This document shows positions 13,489 through 32,056 of a DNA stretch of 64,000 bases, one piece after another. The notes beneath the pieces are model-generated. The model made no database searches. It was not told where the DNA came from and was given only the letters and a program-made list of their open reading frames with translations. Location: positions 1-64,000 of IMG/VR virus record IMGVR_UViG_3300030117_007612; one strand, given 5' to 3'. Every line of letters starts with the position of its first letter. The stretch's first letter is position 1. The stretch is from a virus. Taxonomy: Duplodnaviria; Caudoviricetes. The position numbers were made by a program, and so were the translations under genes.

Positions 13489-13612
13489 TCTATTTATAAT
13501 ATGGTTTGCTTGTGCTAGTGTGATTGCATTTACAACCAGCAATAAGCAAAATAAAGCTAAAAAAGCTTGTGAAGTTGAAAATTGTGAAGAAACAGAGGAG
13601 AATGCGGAATGA
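13475..13612 (+). CDS. small membrane peptide (45 aa); not in ORF track
   Basis: MVAIDLFIIWFACASVIAF plus charged tail; ATGA overlap with next gene. Confidence 0.45.
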   Translation: MVAIDLFIIWFACASVIAFTTSNKQNKAKKACEVENCEETEENAE

Positions 13613-13854
13613 AATATTTATTATTATTTTTACTTTCTGGGGTCGTGCATGCCAATGAACCAAAAGAAGAACCCCGTGTGGTTTACAAACAAAAAACTGA
13701 GATTGACTTTGAGGGCGTTGAGGTTTCTGGCGAATTAGTCAGGCCGCAAGGTTCGCTTGTTTTAGAGCGAAAGCGCGCACAATTTAATTCAATGATTAAG
13801 TTGCGTACTGATTTCGATGATTTGATGGAAGATTCTGTCGAGGAAATAAAATGA
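13609..13854 (+). CDS. cglF: CglF/GltF-like adventurous gliding motility protein
   Basis: Signal peptide (VHA/NE), then YKQKTEIDFEG...GELVRPQG...RK...SMIKLRTDF.D...SVEEI, matching the myxobacterial CglF pattern as recalled. Confidence 0.7.
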   Translation: MKYLLLFLLSGVVHANEPKEEPRVVYKQKTEIDFEGVEVSGELVRPQGSLVLERKRAQFNSMIKLRTDFDDLMEDSVEEIK

Positions 13855-14003
13855 GCACACCAAGAGATTTAATAAAAAGCACATGGGCAAGGTATAAAGA
13901 ATATATGTTACTAAATGGTCGCTTAGAAGACTATGTGTTATTTACAATTGCAAAACTTCTATCTTTTAGTGCAGGAATAGGAATAGGATATTATTATTTA
14001 TGA
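13851..14003 (+). CDS. small membrane protein (50 aa); not in ORF track
   Basis: ATGA overlaps both neighbours; C-terminal hydrophobic helix. Confidence 0.5.
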   Translation: MSTPRDLIKSTWARYKEYMLLNGRLEDYVLFTIAKLLSFSAGIGIGYYYL

Positions 14004-14506
14004 AACTTATAATGGAAAATTGGAACAATTATTTGCAAGAAGAAGAAAGTTTGAATGAAGGAATTGGACAAAAATTTGCCATGGCTGCGGCATTGATTGC
14101 ATCGATGGTCGGTGGTTCACCCGACGCTAATGCCGCAATACAAGTTAGCCAAGATACAATTGAAGATGCCGGCAAAGTGCCGATCGCCAACGCGGCTGGT
14201 CTTCTAACAGACACTACAGCTAGAGTTATCTACGGTGGATTATTGGCCTTAGACCCGGTAGAATTTCCGGGAGCTAAACAGGCAGCAGATATATTTGCGA
14301 AAGCTCACAAATCTAAAGATATTCAACAATTTGAAAATATGCCGCCATTGGCACAAAAAGCTTTACAAATAATAGTAACTCAAATGCATACCGCTGCAGC
14401 GTCGGGTGATCCTGAAAAAGTTAAACAAACAATAGACACATATAGAGGCTTTGAGGCATCGGCGCCGAAAGGAATGAAATTAAAGAAAAAGTTTAGAGAC
14501 AAATGA
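14000..14506 (+). CDS. MKLxxENW-leader protein with internal Sec-like signal
   Basis: MKLIMENWNNYLQE...SLNE, then KFAMAAALIASMVGGSPDANA. Confidence 0.7.
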   Translation: MKLIMENWNNYLQEEESLNEGIGQKFAMAAALIASMVGGSPDANAAIQVSQDTIEDAGKVPIANAAGLLTDTTARVIYGGLLALDPVEFPGAKQAADIFAKAHKSKDIQQFENMPPLAQKALQIIVTQMHTAAASGDPEKVKQTIDTYRGFEASAPKGMKLKKKFRDK

Positions 14507-15522
14507 AATTATTATTTGAAAATTGGCGAAAATTTATAGATGAAGAGATTGAGATCCCTGCGCACCTTAAAAGAACTGTATATCGATTAGATGATGATCT
14601 TGACAAGGCTGAATATCAAGAAATAAAGGATGCTGTAAGTTATTTTATTGATTTAGCAAATGAATCCGCGCCATTAAAAAAGTACGAAGAGCTTACCGGT
14701 GCTCAACAAAAAATTGTGCAAGCTATGGGACTATGGACCGGAGGATATTACAGTGTATTAAGAAATCTGGATAGCCCTGAAGAAAGGATGTTTATGACTC
14801 AATCTCCCACGATTAGCAAAAGAAAAATGCAAAGAATGCAAGACGAAACACAACAGGTGCCTGTTCAATTTGGTAATTTCTCGGTTCAACAATCAGCGAA
14901 ATTTAAAATTACGCCGAGGTCACTAGATCAATCTTTTAAATTATTATACATTATTGCTCAATTAGAAATTCCAGAATCATTTCGAAAGCCATTATATAGA
15001 GGGCTAAGCCTTAATAAAAAACAATTTCGTAATTTCATTAACAGCAAAAAACCAATATTTCACGGTAACCTTCAATCGTGGACAACCGAGGGCAAAAGAG
15101 CCATTGATTATTCGAACCCTAAAGTAGCCGCCGAACACAATCGTGTTGCTGTGGTGCTTGAAATTGAAAGTCCAATCACCGGTACGCCAATAATGGGAGT
15201 TTCACATTTTAAAAGAGAAGCTGAAATTTTAAAAGCCGGTTCATTAAGTGTTTTAAGCTATAGTGAAGAAAAAAATAAAGATGGGCTTCCCTATTATCGT
15301 GTTAAAGTAAAGGAGGTTAATATACCTCCTGAAAAAACTATCTTAGATAAAATAAAAACAACAGCGAAGAATCTCTTTACCTCTAAAAGAAAATTTGGTG
15401 GGGGCGCAGGCGCTGAAGAGTATATTGCACCAAAATACGGAATGCAGATAAGTAACATTCTTAGTCCTAAATATTTAAAAGAGCTAAATACTGGAGATTG
15501 TACAAATGAAACTTATAATTGA
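14503..15522 (+). CDS. MKLxxENW-leader ADP-ribosyltransferase (R-S-E class)
   Basis: LYRG, LQSWT, REAEIL motifs in the C-terminal half. Confidence 0.75.
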   Translation: MKLLFENWRKFIDEEIEIPAHLKRTVYRLDDDLDKAEYQEIKDAVSYFIDLANESAPLKKYEELTGAQQKIVQAMGLWTGGYYSVLRNLDSPEERMFMTQSPTISKRKMQRMQDETQQVPVQFGNFSVQQSAKFKITPRSLDQSFKLLYIIAQLEIPESFRKPLYRGLSLNKKQFRNFINSKKPIFHGNLQSWTTEGKRAIDYSNPKVAAEHNRVAVVLEIESPITGTPIMGVSHFKREAEILKAGSLSVLSYSEEKNKDGLPYYRVKVKEVNIPPEKTILDKIKTTAKNLFTSKRKFGGGAGAEEYIAPKYGMQISNILSPKYLKELNTGDCTNETYN

Positions 15523-16639
15523 AAACTGGCGAACGTTCGCAAATAACCGATCGGGCGACGATCAAATTATTAACGAAGCCATGGAATTATGTAGAACGTA
15601 TAAAAAAGGTCTACTGATCCCTAAAAACAAAAATCAAAGAATGTTTTTAGAACAATTGCAGGAAATGTTAACTCTTCTTGAGCAAGGCGAAATTACGCGT
15701 CGTCAATTTGCTAAAGGTATGGCCGGCGGTGCTGCTATTGGTTTAGGAGGTTCCGCCATGGCAGGACTTGCCCGGGCAGGCGGAAAGGAAAAAACAAAAG
15801 CAGCCCCGGCCGCTAGCGGCGATATAGGGAGCACCGGAGCGAAAGTCGCCAAAGGCGCAGTTGGACTAGCCATTCAAGGAATCGTTGGAGCATTTGATCT
15901 TATTACAATGGGCGTTGAAAATTTTGTAACTCAATGTTACATTGATTTTTTGAGACGAAGAAAGGCCCCGCTTACTAAGTCAGACTTAGATCAAGATTTA
16001 ATCGACTGTCTTAAAATTATTGCGGAAGACTTTAAAAGATCTAGGAAATCCCGAAGAGACCAGTGGGGATCTGACAGGGATTACGCGAGGGTTGCTAAAT
16101 CTAAAATGTATATTGAAAGATTTGGTGAGGAAAGCCCGGGCACCTATAACATGCAAAAAAATATGGAAGGAGCTTGGTCGATTGCGGATAGCTTGACGTC
16201 TACCGATCCTTTAAATAACATTTTTAATACCCTCACTCACGTTAATATTACTCTAAAAGGAGAAACGGTCCAGTTTAGAGATATATACGATTTTAATCCA
16301 GCTGTTAACATACTGGGTGCCGACCAAGCAAAAAAAACCCGGGGCGCCCGTGAAAATAAAGCTTTTTTTCAAAATCCTGATAATTTCGTCGAATTTGCAA
16401 AAAGCGCTGTTAAGGGGAATTTGAGAGTTTATCGTGGTAGAAGACAAGGATGGATTGAGGTGGGTTTTTTCTCGCGCGCCGCAATTGAGAATTTGTCAAG
16501 ATTTTATATTGGCTTGTTTAATTATCCCGGATATAAAGTAAATATTGAAATACCAACTCTACAAGCTGAGCCATTCAGGGGTCGCGGCATGGTAGCGAAA
16601 GCGATGGACTGGTGGCAGGATGAAGGCGGAAAAATTTAA
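15506..16639 (+). CDS. MKLxxENW-leader protein with internal twin-arginine motif
   Basis: MKLIIENWRTF; TRRQFAK at aa 64-70, G/A-rich h-region, LARA. Confidence 0.7.
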   Translation: MKLIIENWRTFANNRSGDDQIINEAMELCRTYKKGLLIPKNKNQRMFLEQLQEMLTLLEQGEITRRQFAKGMAGGAAIGLGGSAMAGLARAGGKEKTKAAPAASGDIGSTGAKVAKGAVGLAIQGIVGAFDLITMGVENFVTQCYIDFLRRRKAPLTKSDLDQDLIDCLKIIAEDFKRSRKSRRDQWGSDRDYARVAKSKMYIERFGEESPGTYNMQKNMEGAWSIADSLTSTDPLNNIFNTLTHVNITLKGETVQFRDIYDFNPAVNILGADQAKKTRGARENKAFFQNPDNFVEFAKSAVKGNLRVYRGRRQGWIEVGFFSRAAIENLSRFYIGLFNYPGYKVNIEIPTLQAEPFRGRGMVAKAMDWWQDEGGKI

Positions 16640-16703: not shown

Positions 16704-17513
16704 ATGATCAAAAAATGCATGTTTTTTCTAGCTCTAGGTTTTGCAGCGCTAGCGGCTAGTTCACCATTTATTGTGCACGATTTGGCACAGTTGGGACATA
16801 AAAGCAGATGGTCGACTTTTGACAAAGTCAGAGTTAAATCTTATTTTGAACCTCTTGGACTTGCAGGGTCACTTGTTCCTCCGATTGGGCCGGCCAAGGG
16901 TATTCACCATGTTTCAAGCTTGGGTGACGCATACTTTGATGGTGACTTACCAAAAAAATCAACCATGAATTTTCTTCGAGAAGTGGTCATGACATCGCCG
17001 GGAAACGGAAAAGCCGGCAACGACTTCAAAAGTCGATTTATGCGCCACGAACAAATTGCCGTTTCATCTGGGAAAAAAGTACACATCAGCAATATTACAC
17101 AAGCGGTACCTTTTCATAGATATGGTCTTCCGTTTGTCGATCATTTTGCTATTACAATGAGAACTGACATCATCGATGGCAAACCAAAGAGTTCATTTAT
17201 AGTGTGGGGTCTGGGTGTGATTGCCGATCATCGCAACCCTAGCAATCTGGGGCCGCAATATGATCATGTTGCTAAAATTTTAAACCTTGAAGGCGGAGAT
17301 CTTATTAGGTGGACATGTAATCTTGAGCGCGAGGGTCTCGCTAAGCCTTATTGGGTTTTAATTACAGAAAACGATGAGACCTCCAAATTCAGTCACGAAG
17401 CAGTTCGAAAAAGGCCTAGTCAACGAAAAGGTGAATGGCACACCACGACTCGTTTGTTACACAAATCAGGCAAAGGCATGTCCGTAAGTCAGCTTTATAA
17501 TACGCTCTTTTAG
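16704..17513 (+). CDS. exported hypothetical protein (moron-like insertion)
   Basis: Own promoter, GGGAGG SD, N-terminal signal peptide. Confidence 0.7.
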   Translation: MIKKCMFFLALGFAALAASSPFIVHDLAQLGHKSRWSTFDKVRVKSYFEPLGLAGSLVPPIGPAKGIHHVSSLGDAYFDGDLPKKSTMNFLREVVMTSPGNGKAGNDFKSRFMRHEQIAVSSGKKVHISNITQAVPFHRYGLPFVDHFAITMRTDIIDGKPKSSFIVWGLGVIADHRNPSNLGPQYDHVAKILNLEGGDLIRWTCNLEREGLAKPYWVLITENDETSKFSHEAVRKRPSQRKGEWHTTTRLLHKSGKGMSVSQLYNTLF

Positions 17514-17535: not shown

Positions 17536-18306
17536 ATGAAACTCTTATTTGAAAATTGGCGAGAGTTCTTGGTAGAACGAGCCACATATATATCAAGTCT
17601 TCAACAAGCTTATCAAGTTTTAGGTCTTGAACCCGGATCTTCAGAATCTGAAGTTAAGAAAGCGTATCGTAAGTTAGCCATGGCCAATCATCCGGATCTC
17701 AATCCTTCACCAGAAGCAAGGGAGACCTTCGAAAAAGCATCAGAGGCTTATGAGGCAATTACATTTAAGGGCCCCGGTAGCTTTCCGTACAAGAGGGGTG
17801 GCGCTGGTGGCCCTGCCGGCGGAACAGATATAGCTAGCATGTGGAAAAACACAGGGCCCGAAGGAATATCAGTGCTAGCTAGTATCAGACAAATAATGAA
17901 CATTGTTTCTCAAGCAATTGAAACTAATCAATCTGTTAAAGTTGCAGGTATTAGTGTACCAGCTAAATTAATAATTGATCGTAATGACTATAGCAATCTT
18001 CTAAACTTTATGCGAAATTATCAATATGAATATTTAAGGGGTATGATGGGCGCTCAAGATTTTGTCAATAATAAAATACTAAATACCCTTAAAACTGTTT
18101 CAATAAGCCCAAAATTTGGATCAGGAAAGCAAGATTTACAAAATTTTGTGGACGTGATGAAAAGAATTGTCCCAGCAGAAGAAACAAAGAAAGAGCCAAC
18201 AGCTGCAGATACTCCCAAACCAAAAACGACAACTTCTCAAAAAACTAAAAGTGCTGATATACCGCCCGAAGACATTGAAATGATGAGAAATATGGGAATT
18301 CTTTAA
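17536..18306 (+). CDS. MKLxxENW-leader J-domain protein
   Basis: YQVLGL...[18 protein letters not shown]...FEKASEAYE. Confidence 0.85.
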
Positions 18307-18312
18307 TGTCTT

Positions 18313-18795
18313 ATGAAGCTATTACTTGAAAATTGGCGAAAGTATTTAGACGAAGTTGAGAGATTTCCAGATATCGCTACAGCGCAAGACGAGATCCAGC
18401 AAAGTCTAGACTATTTTTATCAAGATCACGCACCAAGTAAAGGTCAGCGAAGAGAGTTAGGCGAGTGGAAAGGGCACCAAATGGTAGCCTTTGATTTGCC
18501 GGGAGATACTATACTTTTCTTTGCAGTTGACAAACAAGACAGGGCAAGAGCCTATGTCGGCGTAGATCCCTTTCAGGATAGTTATTCTGTGGGCAATGTT
18601 CGTAAAACCAAGGGTGGTGGATTTTACACAACCGATCTGTACAAATGGTTAGTCGAACAGTTTGGAACATTATACAGTGATAATAAACAAACCACCGCCG
18701 GTGAAGGTATTTGGCGAAGACTGCAACAAGATCCAGAGGTAAATGTTGAAGAACCAAGCGAAGAAACTGGCGGGCGGTGGAGATTAACCAAATGA
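18313..18795 (+). CDS. MKLxxENW-leader GNAT-like protein
   Basis: VGNVRKTKGGGFYTTDLYKWL...LYSD..QT..G..IW. Confidence 0.5.
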   Translation: MKLLLENWRKYLDEVERFPDIATAQDEIQQSLDYFYQDHAPSKGQRRELGEWKGHQMVAFDLPGDTILFFAVDKQDRARAYVGVDPFQDSYSVGNVRKTKGGGFYTTDLYKWLVEQFGTLYSDNKQTTAGEGIWRRLQQDPEVNVEEPSEETGGRWRLTK

Positions 18796-19481
18796 AACTC
18801 CTATTTGAAAATTGGAGAAAGTTTATTACGGAGGTGGAAGAACCCATCACAACCCTTCGTATATTCGACTTCGATGAAACAATAGCCCATACGAGGTCAG
18901 AAACGCGCGTTACAGCGCCTAATGGCTCAAGTGCCACCCTACGTGACCAAAAAGAATTTGAAAGCTACATGCAGGCTGCAGCAAAGAAAGAGGGGATATC
19001 TACTTTTGACCCCGTTTCTGAACTACAAAGAGTTGGCTATCAAATAGATTTAAGTGATTTTGCAATTGTTAAAGATCCGGATGAAATCACTGTTGTTACA
19101 AGCATTATTAAAGATTTTCCGGCTGATTCTAAAACATATATTATGACAGCAAGACGAGGACAATCGCTTGGTCCAATTATGGAGTATCTTGATGAAATTG
19201 GTATTGATTCGTCAAACGTTAGACCAATTGCAACACAAGGGGAGTCTAAGGGCGATGTAATGGTAACGATGCTTAGACAAAAAATTATGCCCGATGGCAA
19301 ATCAAACATTAATCGAATTGAATACTATGAAGATTCTCAAAAAAATATTGATGATGTTTTACAAAAAGTTTGTTCAAATAAAGATATCGACCATCTTAAG
19401 CCTGACAATTTTGAATTAATAATTTATAAAGTCAAAAATGTTGCTGGTCAATATGTGCTGCAAAAGATTGAATGCGAATAA
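18792..19481 (+). CDS. MKLxxENW-leader HAD-family hydrolase
   Basis: Start ATG 18792; IFDFDETI motif I, IMTAR motif II, YYEDS motif IV. Confidence 0.75.
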   Translation: MKLLFENWRKFITEVEEPITTLRIFDFDETIAHTRSETRVTAPNGSSATLRDQKEFESYMQAAAKKEGISTFDPVSELQRVGYQIDLSDFAIVKDPDEITVVTSIIKDFPADSKTYIMTARRGQSLGPIMEYLDEIGIDSSNVRPIATQGESKGDVMVTMLRQKIMPDGKSNINRIEYYEDSQKNIDDVLQKVCSNKDIDHLKPDNFELIIYKVKNVAGQYVLQKIECE

Positions 19482-19945: not shown

Positions 19946-19991
19946 TGTCTGATATCACTATTTAATATTAGTTTATTGGAGGACATATACC

Positions 19992-26532: not shown

Positions 26533-26865
26533 GGGGATGATATGGATTCGACAGGGCAAAAAAGAGGAAAAGTGCAAGCAGGTTAGATACGACCATAACA
26601 GTTCAACAAACTTAGTTGCAAATAACAACTTACATTTCGAACAGCGCTTAGCCGCTTAGTAGGGAGGCCGCTCAAAGCCTTCTATCCAATTTGAGCAAAA
26701 CAACAGATAAGTTGTAAAAATCAAACCATTTATCGTTCGCGTGATGGGGGCGATATCTTATTTCCATCTATCTTTGTCAGTATGTGATAGTAAACTGACT
26801 AAGCTTGTGAATGACTACAATTGGATTTGTTTTGGACGCGGGTTCGACTCCCGCCATCTCCACCA
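26533..26865 (+). ncRNA. ssrA: tmRNA; tag ANNNLHFEQRLAA*
   Basis: 5' GGGGATG...GGATTCGACAG; 3' GGTTCGACTCCCGCCATCTCCACCA; G3-U70 pair; resume GCA 26618 after TAGTT; stop TAG 26657-26659. Confidence 0.95.
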
Positions 26866-31360: not shown

Positions 31361-31437
31361 GCACCCGTAGCTCAGCTGGATAGAGCATCGGCCTTCTAAG
31401 CCGAGGGTCATAGGTTCGAATCCTATCGGGTGTGCCA
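31361..31437 (+). tRNA. trnR: tRNA-Arg(UCU)
   Basis: GCACCCG/CGGGTGT acceptor, TCGGC-CTTCTAA-GCCGA, TTCGAAT, encoded CCA. Confidence 0.95.
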
Positions 31438-31459
31438 TAACAATCAATAGGAAAAAATT

Positions 31460-31894
31460 ATGAAAACCAAAACACCTTATGATACCGTTGTTGTTAGCGG
31501 CGGGTTTGATCCTGTTCATGTTGGACATGTTAGGATGATTACTGAAGCTGCTGAGCATGGAGATGTAATTGTAGTAGCCAATTCTGATGAGTGGCTTTTA
31601 AACAAGAAAGGATACGTATTTATGAAATGGGAGGAAAGGGCTGAGATCTTGTCCTCGTTTAAGGGGGTCATCCGCGTTGAGAGAGTGGATGATAGTGATG
31701 GCACAGTATGCGAAGCTTTAGAAAGAATCGAGCCGACATACTTTGCCAACGGCGGCGACAGAAAAGAGACAAACACACCAGAAATGAAGGTATGCAACGA
31801 TAAGGGTATTGAATTGTTGTGGAATATTGGCGGCGGCAAAATACAAAGCAGTTCCGACTTAGTTAAAAATTATGAAGAAAAAAGATTACAATAA
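31460..31894 (+). CDS. cytidylyltransferase-like protein (HxGH; TagD/RfaE-II-like)
   Basis: SGGFDPVHVGHV, NSDEWL..KKG, NGGDR, SSSDL. Confidence 0.8.
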   Translation: MKTKTPYDTVVVSGGFDPVHVGHVRMITEAAEHGDVIVVANSDEWLLNKKGYVFMKWEERAEILSSFKGVIRVERVDDSDGTVCEALERIEPTYFANGGDRKETNTPEMKVCNDKGIELLWNIGGGKIQSSSDLVKNYEEKRLQ

Positions 31895-31900
31895 AATTAA

Positions 31901-31977
31901 TGGGGCGAAGCGCCACAGGCAGGTGCACCGGGTTGTTACCCCGGCCGTTGCTGGTTCGAGTCCAGCCGCCCCAGCCA
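31901..31977 (+). tRNA. trnN: tRNA-Asn(GUU) with atypical core
   Basis: TGGGGCG/CGCCCCA acceptor, CCGGG-TTGTTAC-CCCGG, GCTGG-TTCGAGT-CCAGC, G73, CCA; A8 and C14. Confidence 0.8.
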
Positions 31978-31981
31978 TTAC

Positions 31982-32056
31982 GCGGGAGTAGCTCAGTGGT
32001 AGAGCCCCACGTTGCCAACGTGGATGTCGCGGGTTCGAATCCCGTCTCCCGCTCCA
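31982..32056 (+). tRNA. trnG: tRNA-Gly(GCC)
   Basis: GCGGGAG/CTCCCGC, CCACG-TTGCCAA-CGTGG, U73, CCA. Confidence 0.95.

Follow-up and report, generated by a model that had tools for sequence, protein, structure and literature searches.

Why should proteins of a bacteriophage carry what look like bacterial export signals behind their N-termini rather than at them? This question is raised by a gene cluster in the first 64 kb of IMGVR_UViG_3300030117_007612, a single-contig IMG/VR virus record of 203,368 bp that is rated complete by CheckV (the window, hereafter, is this whole stretch of 64,000 nucleotides). Two proteins of the cluster, P0001 (open reading frame (ORF) 14000-14506) and P0002 (ORF 15506-16639), contain a Sec-type and a Tat-type segment, respectively, and both segments follow a leader that the two proteins share with their neighbours. 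Our observations amount to conserved, portable signal-like segments that stand in a fixed order behind this leader. We interpret them as parts of bipartite labels on head-internal proteins, each consisting of a capsid leader, a head-protease site and an export signal, so that packaging, cleavage, injection and export would follow one another; we regard this proposal as evenly poised between right and wrong.

Six adjacent ORFs on the plus strand, starting at 14000, 14503, 15506, 17536, 18313 and 18792, open with MKL[LI]xENW[RN]xx..[LI]xE, a leader that was found on no further ORF of the whole genome. Beyond the leader, which ends in LQE, IDE, INE, LVE, LDE or ITE, the six proteins are unrelated to one another. 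When an exact DNA pattern for the leader was scanned on viral contigs, at least 119 viral loci were recovered, yielding at least 203 different leader proteins. In T4, gp21 cuts after the short motif L/I-x-E (PMC9026906), and a 10-residue capsid-targeting sequence (CTS) loads IPI-III and Alt into the prohead, from which they are later ejected to the cytoplasm (PMC9026906, PMC3012670). The present genome encodes a gp21-type prohead protease (Peptidase_S77; G000:C1:119185-119661; 114.3 bits, E = 5e-34, above the cut-off) and a gp23-type major capsid protein (207 bits, E = 3e-62). Because the closest cultured capsid proteins, those of Flavobacterium phage vB_FspM_immuto, Microcystis phage Mel-JY01 and Rhodothermus phage RM378, are just 36-45% identical to the latter, the genome belongs to a distantly related T4-like phage, marine and uncultured; no match was obtained among cultured phages searched with the DNA of the locus or with the P0002 protein. 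A second leader type, MKxxxxxLxxIIxEE, is present on homologues of both cargos (P0016, P0010, P0011, P0028, P0031 and P0038) and also on small ORFs adjoining the head genes of this genome, at 108210 and 108751. Since the leaders interchange on the same cargo, a common loading function fits, and by analogy with T4 we infer that the leader is a capsid-loading tag.

The P0001 segment begins at residue 21 (base 14060) and shows the features classically expected of a Sec signal, namely a basic n-region, an h-region of 10-15 residues (14 in P0001) and small residues at positions -3 and -1; the call was made by eye, using these rules on the sequence. The segment is preceded by the 20-residue acidic leader in the precursor and would become N-terminal only after a cut behind L-N-E. 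Nine homologues share 44-88% identity with P0001. The cut motif and the residue that follows it ([LIV]-x-E-G; E20 and G21) are invariant in ten P0001 homologues, including cases of a changed leader type or of a 47-residue insert behind the leader; P0016, for example, has the other leader type and retains V-I-E-E/G (here and below, a slash marks a putative cleavage point). The Sec-type pattern is likewise kept in the 10 homologues: K25, A31-L32-I33, D42 and A46-I47-Q48 vary little or not at all, and all homologues have A or S at -3 and A, S or G at -1. Similar segments directly behind [LIV]xE were also found in unrelated leader proteins, encoded by leader ORFs in L058, L010 and L085, of which that in L010 reads AMPGWVKK-MVGAGMLIATAAGALV-PNPAHA/D. 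Conservation in sequence thus extends to the Sec-type segment and to its cut motif, although this signal type is less diagnostic than Tat. The AF2 model of P0001 has low confidence (pLDDT 56), with helices at residues 71-153 (pLDDT 60-76 there), and gave no informative fold match in Atlas; searches of Pfam and PHROGs gave no family for either P0001 or P0002.

The P0002 segment contains TRRQFAK at residues 64-70, which conforms to the Tat motif S/T-R-R-x-F-L-K, and is preceded by ...MLTLLE. The codons for R65 and R66 lie at 15698-15703, the codon for A91 ends at 15778, and the h-region of 19 residues is rich in Gly and Ala, with a mean Kyte-Doolittle hydropathy of 1.22. A loose Tat-type motif occurs twice in the 952 open six-frame segments (60 residues or longer) of the 203-kb genome, and an uncharged stretch comes after only one of the two, at 15695. 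As in P0001, the segment is not N-terminal in the precursor; with its twin arginines at residues 65-66, it would be so only after a cut behind L-L-E, at residue 59. An earlier sequence-only reading of this DNA had placed a Sec segment after SLNE in ORF 14000 and a Tat segment with its arginine pair at 15698 in ORF 15506, and these coordinates and residues proved correct. It had further set the P0002 signal behind LEQGE, which ends at residue 62, and proposed Glu-specific maturation. The T4-type rule L/I-x-E would instead put the cut after L-L-E; a short n-region is left before the arginines either way. In the AF2 model of P0002 (pLDDT 64; helices 4-14, 18-33 and 42-59 at pLDDT 64-86), the leader, the spacer and the start of the signal pack into one helical bundle. 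We call the P0002 segment Tat-like from its homology and motif and not from its own score.

A profile search of 1.8 billion representatives revealed more proteins that match just the first ~90 residues of P0002 and continue into other domains, and a scan of viral contigs with a narrower module alignment gave one locus. In all of the 17 module proteins, [ST]RRx[FL][LAVI]K is present, with the arginine pair at residue 61-69, and L-x-E lies 1-6 residues ahead of [ST]RR. Thirteen modules could be aligned (23-68% identity), and their only invariant columns are E6, W8, R9, R65, R66 and K70. Among the P0002 homologues, eight of ten keep TRRQFAK, SRRGFVK, TRRDLLK or TRRDILK. The sequence-only reading had named conservation of RRxF beforehand as the test by which it could be refuted, and the motif withstood it. 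The two-helix spacer is conserved and was found only in Tat-type modules. The h-regions of the 17 proteins are Tat-like in length and hydropathy (13-25 residues; mean 0.8-1.6). On TIGR01409, a curated Tat model with a cut-off of 16.7 bits, ten module proteins score 17.7-30.7 bits: P0006 (17.8), P0008 (22.0), P0009 (19.3), P0021 (25.9; segment alone, 30.7), P0024 (21.1), P0026 (29.5), P0033 (21.5), P0034 (19.0), P0035 (18.4) and P0037 (17.7). The segments of homologues that align to that of P0002 reach 17.8-22.0 bits.

By BLAST, the cargos behind the module fall into six unrelated families. P0021, which occupies the syntenic place in a related contig and contains LSRRSFLKKAATAAGAVAASQMIPSVARA, aligns with P0002 over its N-terminal 110 residues (27% identity, E = 2e-5), and its body, with an HEFEH motif, is unrelated. 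Within the P0021 family (42% overall identity), S65-R66-R67, F69-L70-K71-K72 and A73-A74 are invariant, and P0026 has only the module in common with this family. The cargo of P0035 is TseH-like (PF25218, E = 2.5e-20). TseH is a cell-wall-targeting type VI effector that is harmless in the cytosol and lethal once a Tat signal sends it to the periplasm (PMC4453574). The cargo of P0037, a metagenomic protein, is cysteine-rich and serum-amyloid-A-like (PF00277, E = 6e-18). For the P0002 cargo itself, searches gave little: a Foldseek search of the PDB with the model returned nothing below E = 0.88, a VIA wide search returned generic helical bundles only (residues 1-79, Z of 6.8 or less), the profile matched no PDB sequence, and Atlas returned viral hypothetical clusters only. 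Fold and feature comparisons gave weak leads: a TM of 0.44 to a viral cluster with LysM, and one cluster that had Colicin_M on 11%. The P0035 gene (L123:1832-3478 region) is followed by a gene for a 213-residue Peptidase_C92 protein with a lipoprotein signal (LCITAC), and the locus also contains phage replication genes (RecA-like, DnaB-like helicase and ribonucleotide reductase). P0035 and this lipoprotein may act together on the envelope or be related as enzyme and immunity protein.

How might such a label work? From homology to T4, the shared N-terminal leader would bring the protein into the prohead core, where the gp21-type protease would cut after [L/I]-x-E and free the Sec- or Tat-type signal as a new N-terminus. 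Until then, the acidic leader of P0001 should disable the Sec n-region. In the Tat type, the two-helix spacer would be lost along with the acidic leader; because the AF2 model packs leader, spacer and signal start into one bundle, the spacer could hide the Tat signal for as long as the protein is in the producer cell. The trimmed protein would then, as in T4, be ejected with the DNA into the cytoplasm of the next host, where, to judge from the signals, the host SecA/SecYEG or TatABC machinery would take the cargo to the inner membrane or periplasm. A ready-made protein would have only the post-translational route open after ejection, that is, Tat if folded or the SecA-dependent pathway if unfolded. 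The last step would be either release by signal peptidase (ANA/A in P0001, ARA/G in P0002) or retention of the signal as an anchor.

Several observations weigh against this proposal. The window's own Tat-type segment (P0002 residues 58-100) scores 7.6 bits on TIGR01409, below the cut-off, and the full protein gives no hit; on PF10518 it scores 7.0 bits against a cut-off of 22.7, and it has A where the consensus has L. Some relatives of the P0002 cargo (P0010, P0011 and P0028) carry the other leader type and no Tat segment, and the cargo therefore seems to have no strict need of export. The AxA end is lost in several P0002-family homologues (e.g. VARGAMSK), which makes cleavage by signal peptidase doubtful in this family, and the signal may stay as an anchor. 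In L090:996-1640 (minus strand), which encodes a homologue of P0034 (34% identity, E = 8e-35), V-R-K replaces T-R-R and the core is more hydrophobic; either the protein has switched from Tat to Sec, or the arginine pair is dispensable. Searches of the phage genome for TatA and TatC, which were positive in 11 of 14 control genomes including a cyanobacterium and a Bacteroides, found neither gene. Scans showed no enrichment of the T4 late promoter TATAAATA, and those for sigma-70-type promoters and terminators remained at chance level. Finally, natural Tat signals with long N-terminal extensions exist, so that an uncut precursor might be exported in the producer cell.

The low scores of the window's segment on TIGR01409 and PF10518, and the commonness of Gly/Ala-rich stretches, could also suggest that low-complexity Gly/Ala-rich linkers lie behind the leader by chance and have no targeting role. 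We consider this very unlikely, because such a motif is found singly in the whole genome and invariantly in 17 proteins with six cargo families, and because the weak family matches are all to Tat-signal models. Both segments of the window thus go beyond chance, being conserved in homologues, and the Tat motif with its uncharged stretch is unique in the genome. The Tat assignment of the sequence-only reading stands as far as the motif, its position behind L-x-E and the relatives above the TIGR01409 cut-off are concerned, and falls short in the score of the window's own copy. The wider interpretation of that reading, in which maturation at a glutamate unmasks the signals so that injected proteins are re-exported to the periplasm, is partly supported: conservation, the upstream L-x-E, the portability of the module and the TseH-like cargo speak for it, and the low Tat score of P0002 and the unconserved AxA end speak against it.

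The segments may instead anchor ejected proteins in the membrane or serve as their insertion helices. Such proteins would settle in the inner membrane while the DNA enters, as those of T7 and P22 do, without help from Tat or Sec, and the arginines would be mere flanking positive charges, an alternative that the sequence-only reading had raised as well. The unconserved AxA end of the P0002 family would agree with this, as would the segments of P0008 and P0009, which are similar to the Rieske Tat signal-anchor, a signal left uncleaved (PF10399; 22.1 and 18.6 bits, below the cut-off of 24). True transmembrane helices are, moreover, carried by other leader proteins: the leader ORFs in L096, L061, L079, L059 and L110 have a transmembrane-type helix at residues 120-145 (hydropathy 2.3-3.1), and this set, several members of which have an FLENWE box in common, has the appearance of integral membrane proteins. 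In a rough tally, uncharged hydrophobic stretches were counted for 42 of 203 leader proteins and 64 of 177 other ORFs, which did not set the two groups apart and supports no claim of enrichment. However, anchors would leave unexplained why the whole motif T/S-R-R-x-F/L-L/A/V-K is kept over six cargo families amid variable surroundings and why scores exceed the curated Tat cut-off. The short, weakly hydrophobic h-regions of the modules are like those of Tat signals and unlike membrane-spanning helices, and the h-region of P0001 is itself too short for a membrane span. This alternative is therefore improbable in our view, and it stays mainly for the Sec-type segment.

If the segments are export signals, the cell in which they act becomes the question. 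The host Tat or Sec machinery might export the full-length or partly processed proteins late in infection, as envelope-remodelling, lysis or superinfection-exclusion factors, with the leader having another role or serving a second, parallel fate. TseH-like and other cell-wall hydrolase cargos would suit lysis too, long extensions before the arginine pair are found in natural Tat substrates (TIGR04519 is among the weak matches), and ordinary exported proteins with N-terminal signals are encoded next door, by ORFs 13609-13854 and 16704-17513. In P0033, P0034 and P0035, a Met stands right before TRR and could mark an internal start; in P0035, however, AGGAG abuts the ATG, too close for a ribosome-binding site. 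For the window gene, an internal translation start before the arginine pair was rejected, since the codon there is ATT (Ile) and no Met lies between the cut motif and the pair. Two features make export from the producer cell unlikely. The same leader is found on J-domain, ADP-ribosyltransferase-like and HAD-like proteins without any export signal, indicating that it is not part of the export signal, and the L-x-E that directly precedes the n-region in all of the modules would be purposeless if it were the uncut precursor that is exported.

The proposed two-part label has partial counterparts in known systems. The T4 proteins IPI, IPII, IPIII and Alt with their CTS (PMC9026906, PMC3012670) are similar in having a short N-terminal peptide on unrelated proteins that ends in L/I-x-E. 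The similarity extends to the gp21-family protease, to the clustered, hypervariable genes and to the ADP-ribosyltransferase-like partner, which recalls Alt; the expected fate of packaging, trimming and ejection into the host cytoplasm would also be the same. The leader described here differs in being longer (14-24 versus 10 residues), probably in its sequence, and in the second address that follows the first. To our knowledge, no T4 internal protein has a Sec or Tat signal behind its CTS. Bacterial Tat signals (TIGR01409 and PF10518; Rieske, PF10399) share with the segments the motif, the weak, Gly/Ala-rich h-region and the basic or small-x-small c-region, but the arginine pair here lies behind a leader and a folded spacer, and the signals are phage-encoded and fused to phage cargos.

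A parallel in logic is found in plastids. Proteins of the thylakoid lumen have bipartite presequences in which a stromal transit peptide is followed by a cpSec or cpTat signal, and two successive peptidases remove the two parts. In both cases, removal of the first address would expose a Sec or Tat signal for a second translocation, the signal ends in AxA and both versions exist side by side. The difference is that the first compartment here would be a capsid and the first transport an injection into another cell; this is an analogy only and implies no homology. The ejection proteins gp14, gp15 and gp16 of T7 and gp7, gp16 and gp20 of P22 (for P22, PMC8402733) resemble the proposed cargos in being head-internal, leaving through the tail and reaching the host envelope, and some have cell-wall hydrolase domains. 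In contrast, direct insertion from the tail channel is the usual view for these podovirus proteins, which are not known to have Tat or Sec consensus signals.

Phage internal proteins are thought either to act in the cytoplasm, as do T4 Alt and IPI, or to build the entry channel, as in T7 and P22. The two-part label would add a third destination, for which phages would hijack host export machines on behalf of proteins synthesized in the preceding host. Envelope effectors made in advance, such as cell-wall hydrolases, could be active seconds after their injection into the new host, and the gain would be envelope-acting proteins at time zero, ahead of any phage gene expression. Whether marine T4-like phages generally run such a two-stage route, from capsid to host cytoplasm and on to the periplasm or inner membrane, with a cassette that fits any cargo, is a broader proposition that we place slightly short of even; such a cassette would also be a natural means of periplasmic protein delivery by phage particles. 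Because their position in the gene product is internal, signals of this kind are missed by annotation pipelines. In full-text literature searches, we came across no publication connecting Tat or Sec signals to phage proteins that are capsid-targeted or ejected. New here are the Sec- and Tat-type versions side by side in one gene cluster, the result on invariant columns, the TseH-like and serum-amyloid-A-like cargos, the leader swaps and a possible Tat-to-Sec swap within one cargo family.

Table 1. Features of the leader gene cluster in the window
Feature	Position	Strand	Details
P0001 gene, 168 residues: leader, Sec-type signal, small helical cargo with basic tail at end	14000..14506	+	
P0001 leader (residues 1-20; MKLIMENWNNYLQE EESLNE; MKLIMENWNNYLQEEESLNE)	14000..14059	+	L-x-E twice: LQE at residues 12-14, LNE at residues 18-20; net charge -4
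P0001 Sec-type signal-like segment (residues 21-45)	14060..14134	+	GIGQK / FAMAAALIASMVGG / SPDANA, then AIQ
Leader protein, ADP-ribosyltransferase-like, no export signal	14503..15522	+	YRG, SWT and EAE motifs; language-model features 0.93 to ADPrib_exo_Tox clusters
P0002 gene, 377 residues: leader, helical spacer, Tat-type signal, conserved cargo domain	15506..16639	+	
P0002 leader (residues 1-24, ends I-N-E) and conserved two-helix spacer (residues 25-59, ends L-L-E)	15506..15682	+	Helices 4-14, 18-33 and 42-59 in the AF2 model
P0002 Tat-type signal-like segment (residues 60-91)	15683..15778	+	QGEI-TRRQFAK / GMAGGAAIGLGGSAMAGLA-RA (ARA end), then GGKEK
P0002 cargo domain (residues 92-377)	15779..16636	+	C144 invariant, C168 nearly so
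Leader protein, J-domain (DnaJ), no export signal	17536..18306	+	PF00226, E = 5.9e-16
Leader protein, no export signal, no assigned function	18313..18795	+	Leader match
Leader protein, HAD-like FDFDET (DxDxT) motif, no export signal	18792..19481	+	Motif read from sequence

The leader-tagged partners in Table 1 (the ADP-ribosyltransferase-like, J-domain and HAD-like motif proteins) resemble host-takeover enzymes. ORF 14503-15522 had neither a Pfam match nor a PDB sequence match, and no family match was found for ORF 18792-19481 in Pfam/PHROGs-type searches. Two small ORFs in 13609-14003, with overlapping stop and start codons, lead into the first leader gene; the first (ORF 13609-13854) encodes an 81-residue protein with an ordinary signal peptide, and the other a 50-residue protein with a C-terminal hydrophobic helix. 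ORF 16704-17513 (269 residues) lies within the leader cluster and has no leader. It begins with an ordinary N-terminal signal (MIKKCMFFLALGFAALAASS), which indicates that the phage also exports by the conventional route, right beside the leader genes, and its own sigma-70-like promoter (TTGCAC, spacer, TATAAT) lies in the 64-base gap upstream.

The octamer ACTATTTA occurs 14 times on the plus strand of the genome. Seven copies are in the head/tail module (107-137 kb), at 107597, 114587, 118929, 120372, 127119, 134063 and 137230, at least four of which sit in gaps upstream of genes; in the head-module copies, the octamer is followed by T or C. It may be a late promoter. A near copy, CTATTTATA, is present at 13490 of the window, in the gap ahead of the operon that holds the leader genes 14000-16639, and the octamer was also recorded at 19957. 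In the regions 26533-26865 and 31361-32056 of the window, ARAGORN called a transfer-messenger RNA (tag ANNNLHFEQRLAA) and tRNAs Arg-TCT, Asn-GTT and Gly-GCC.

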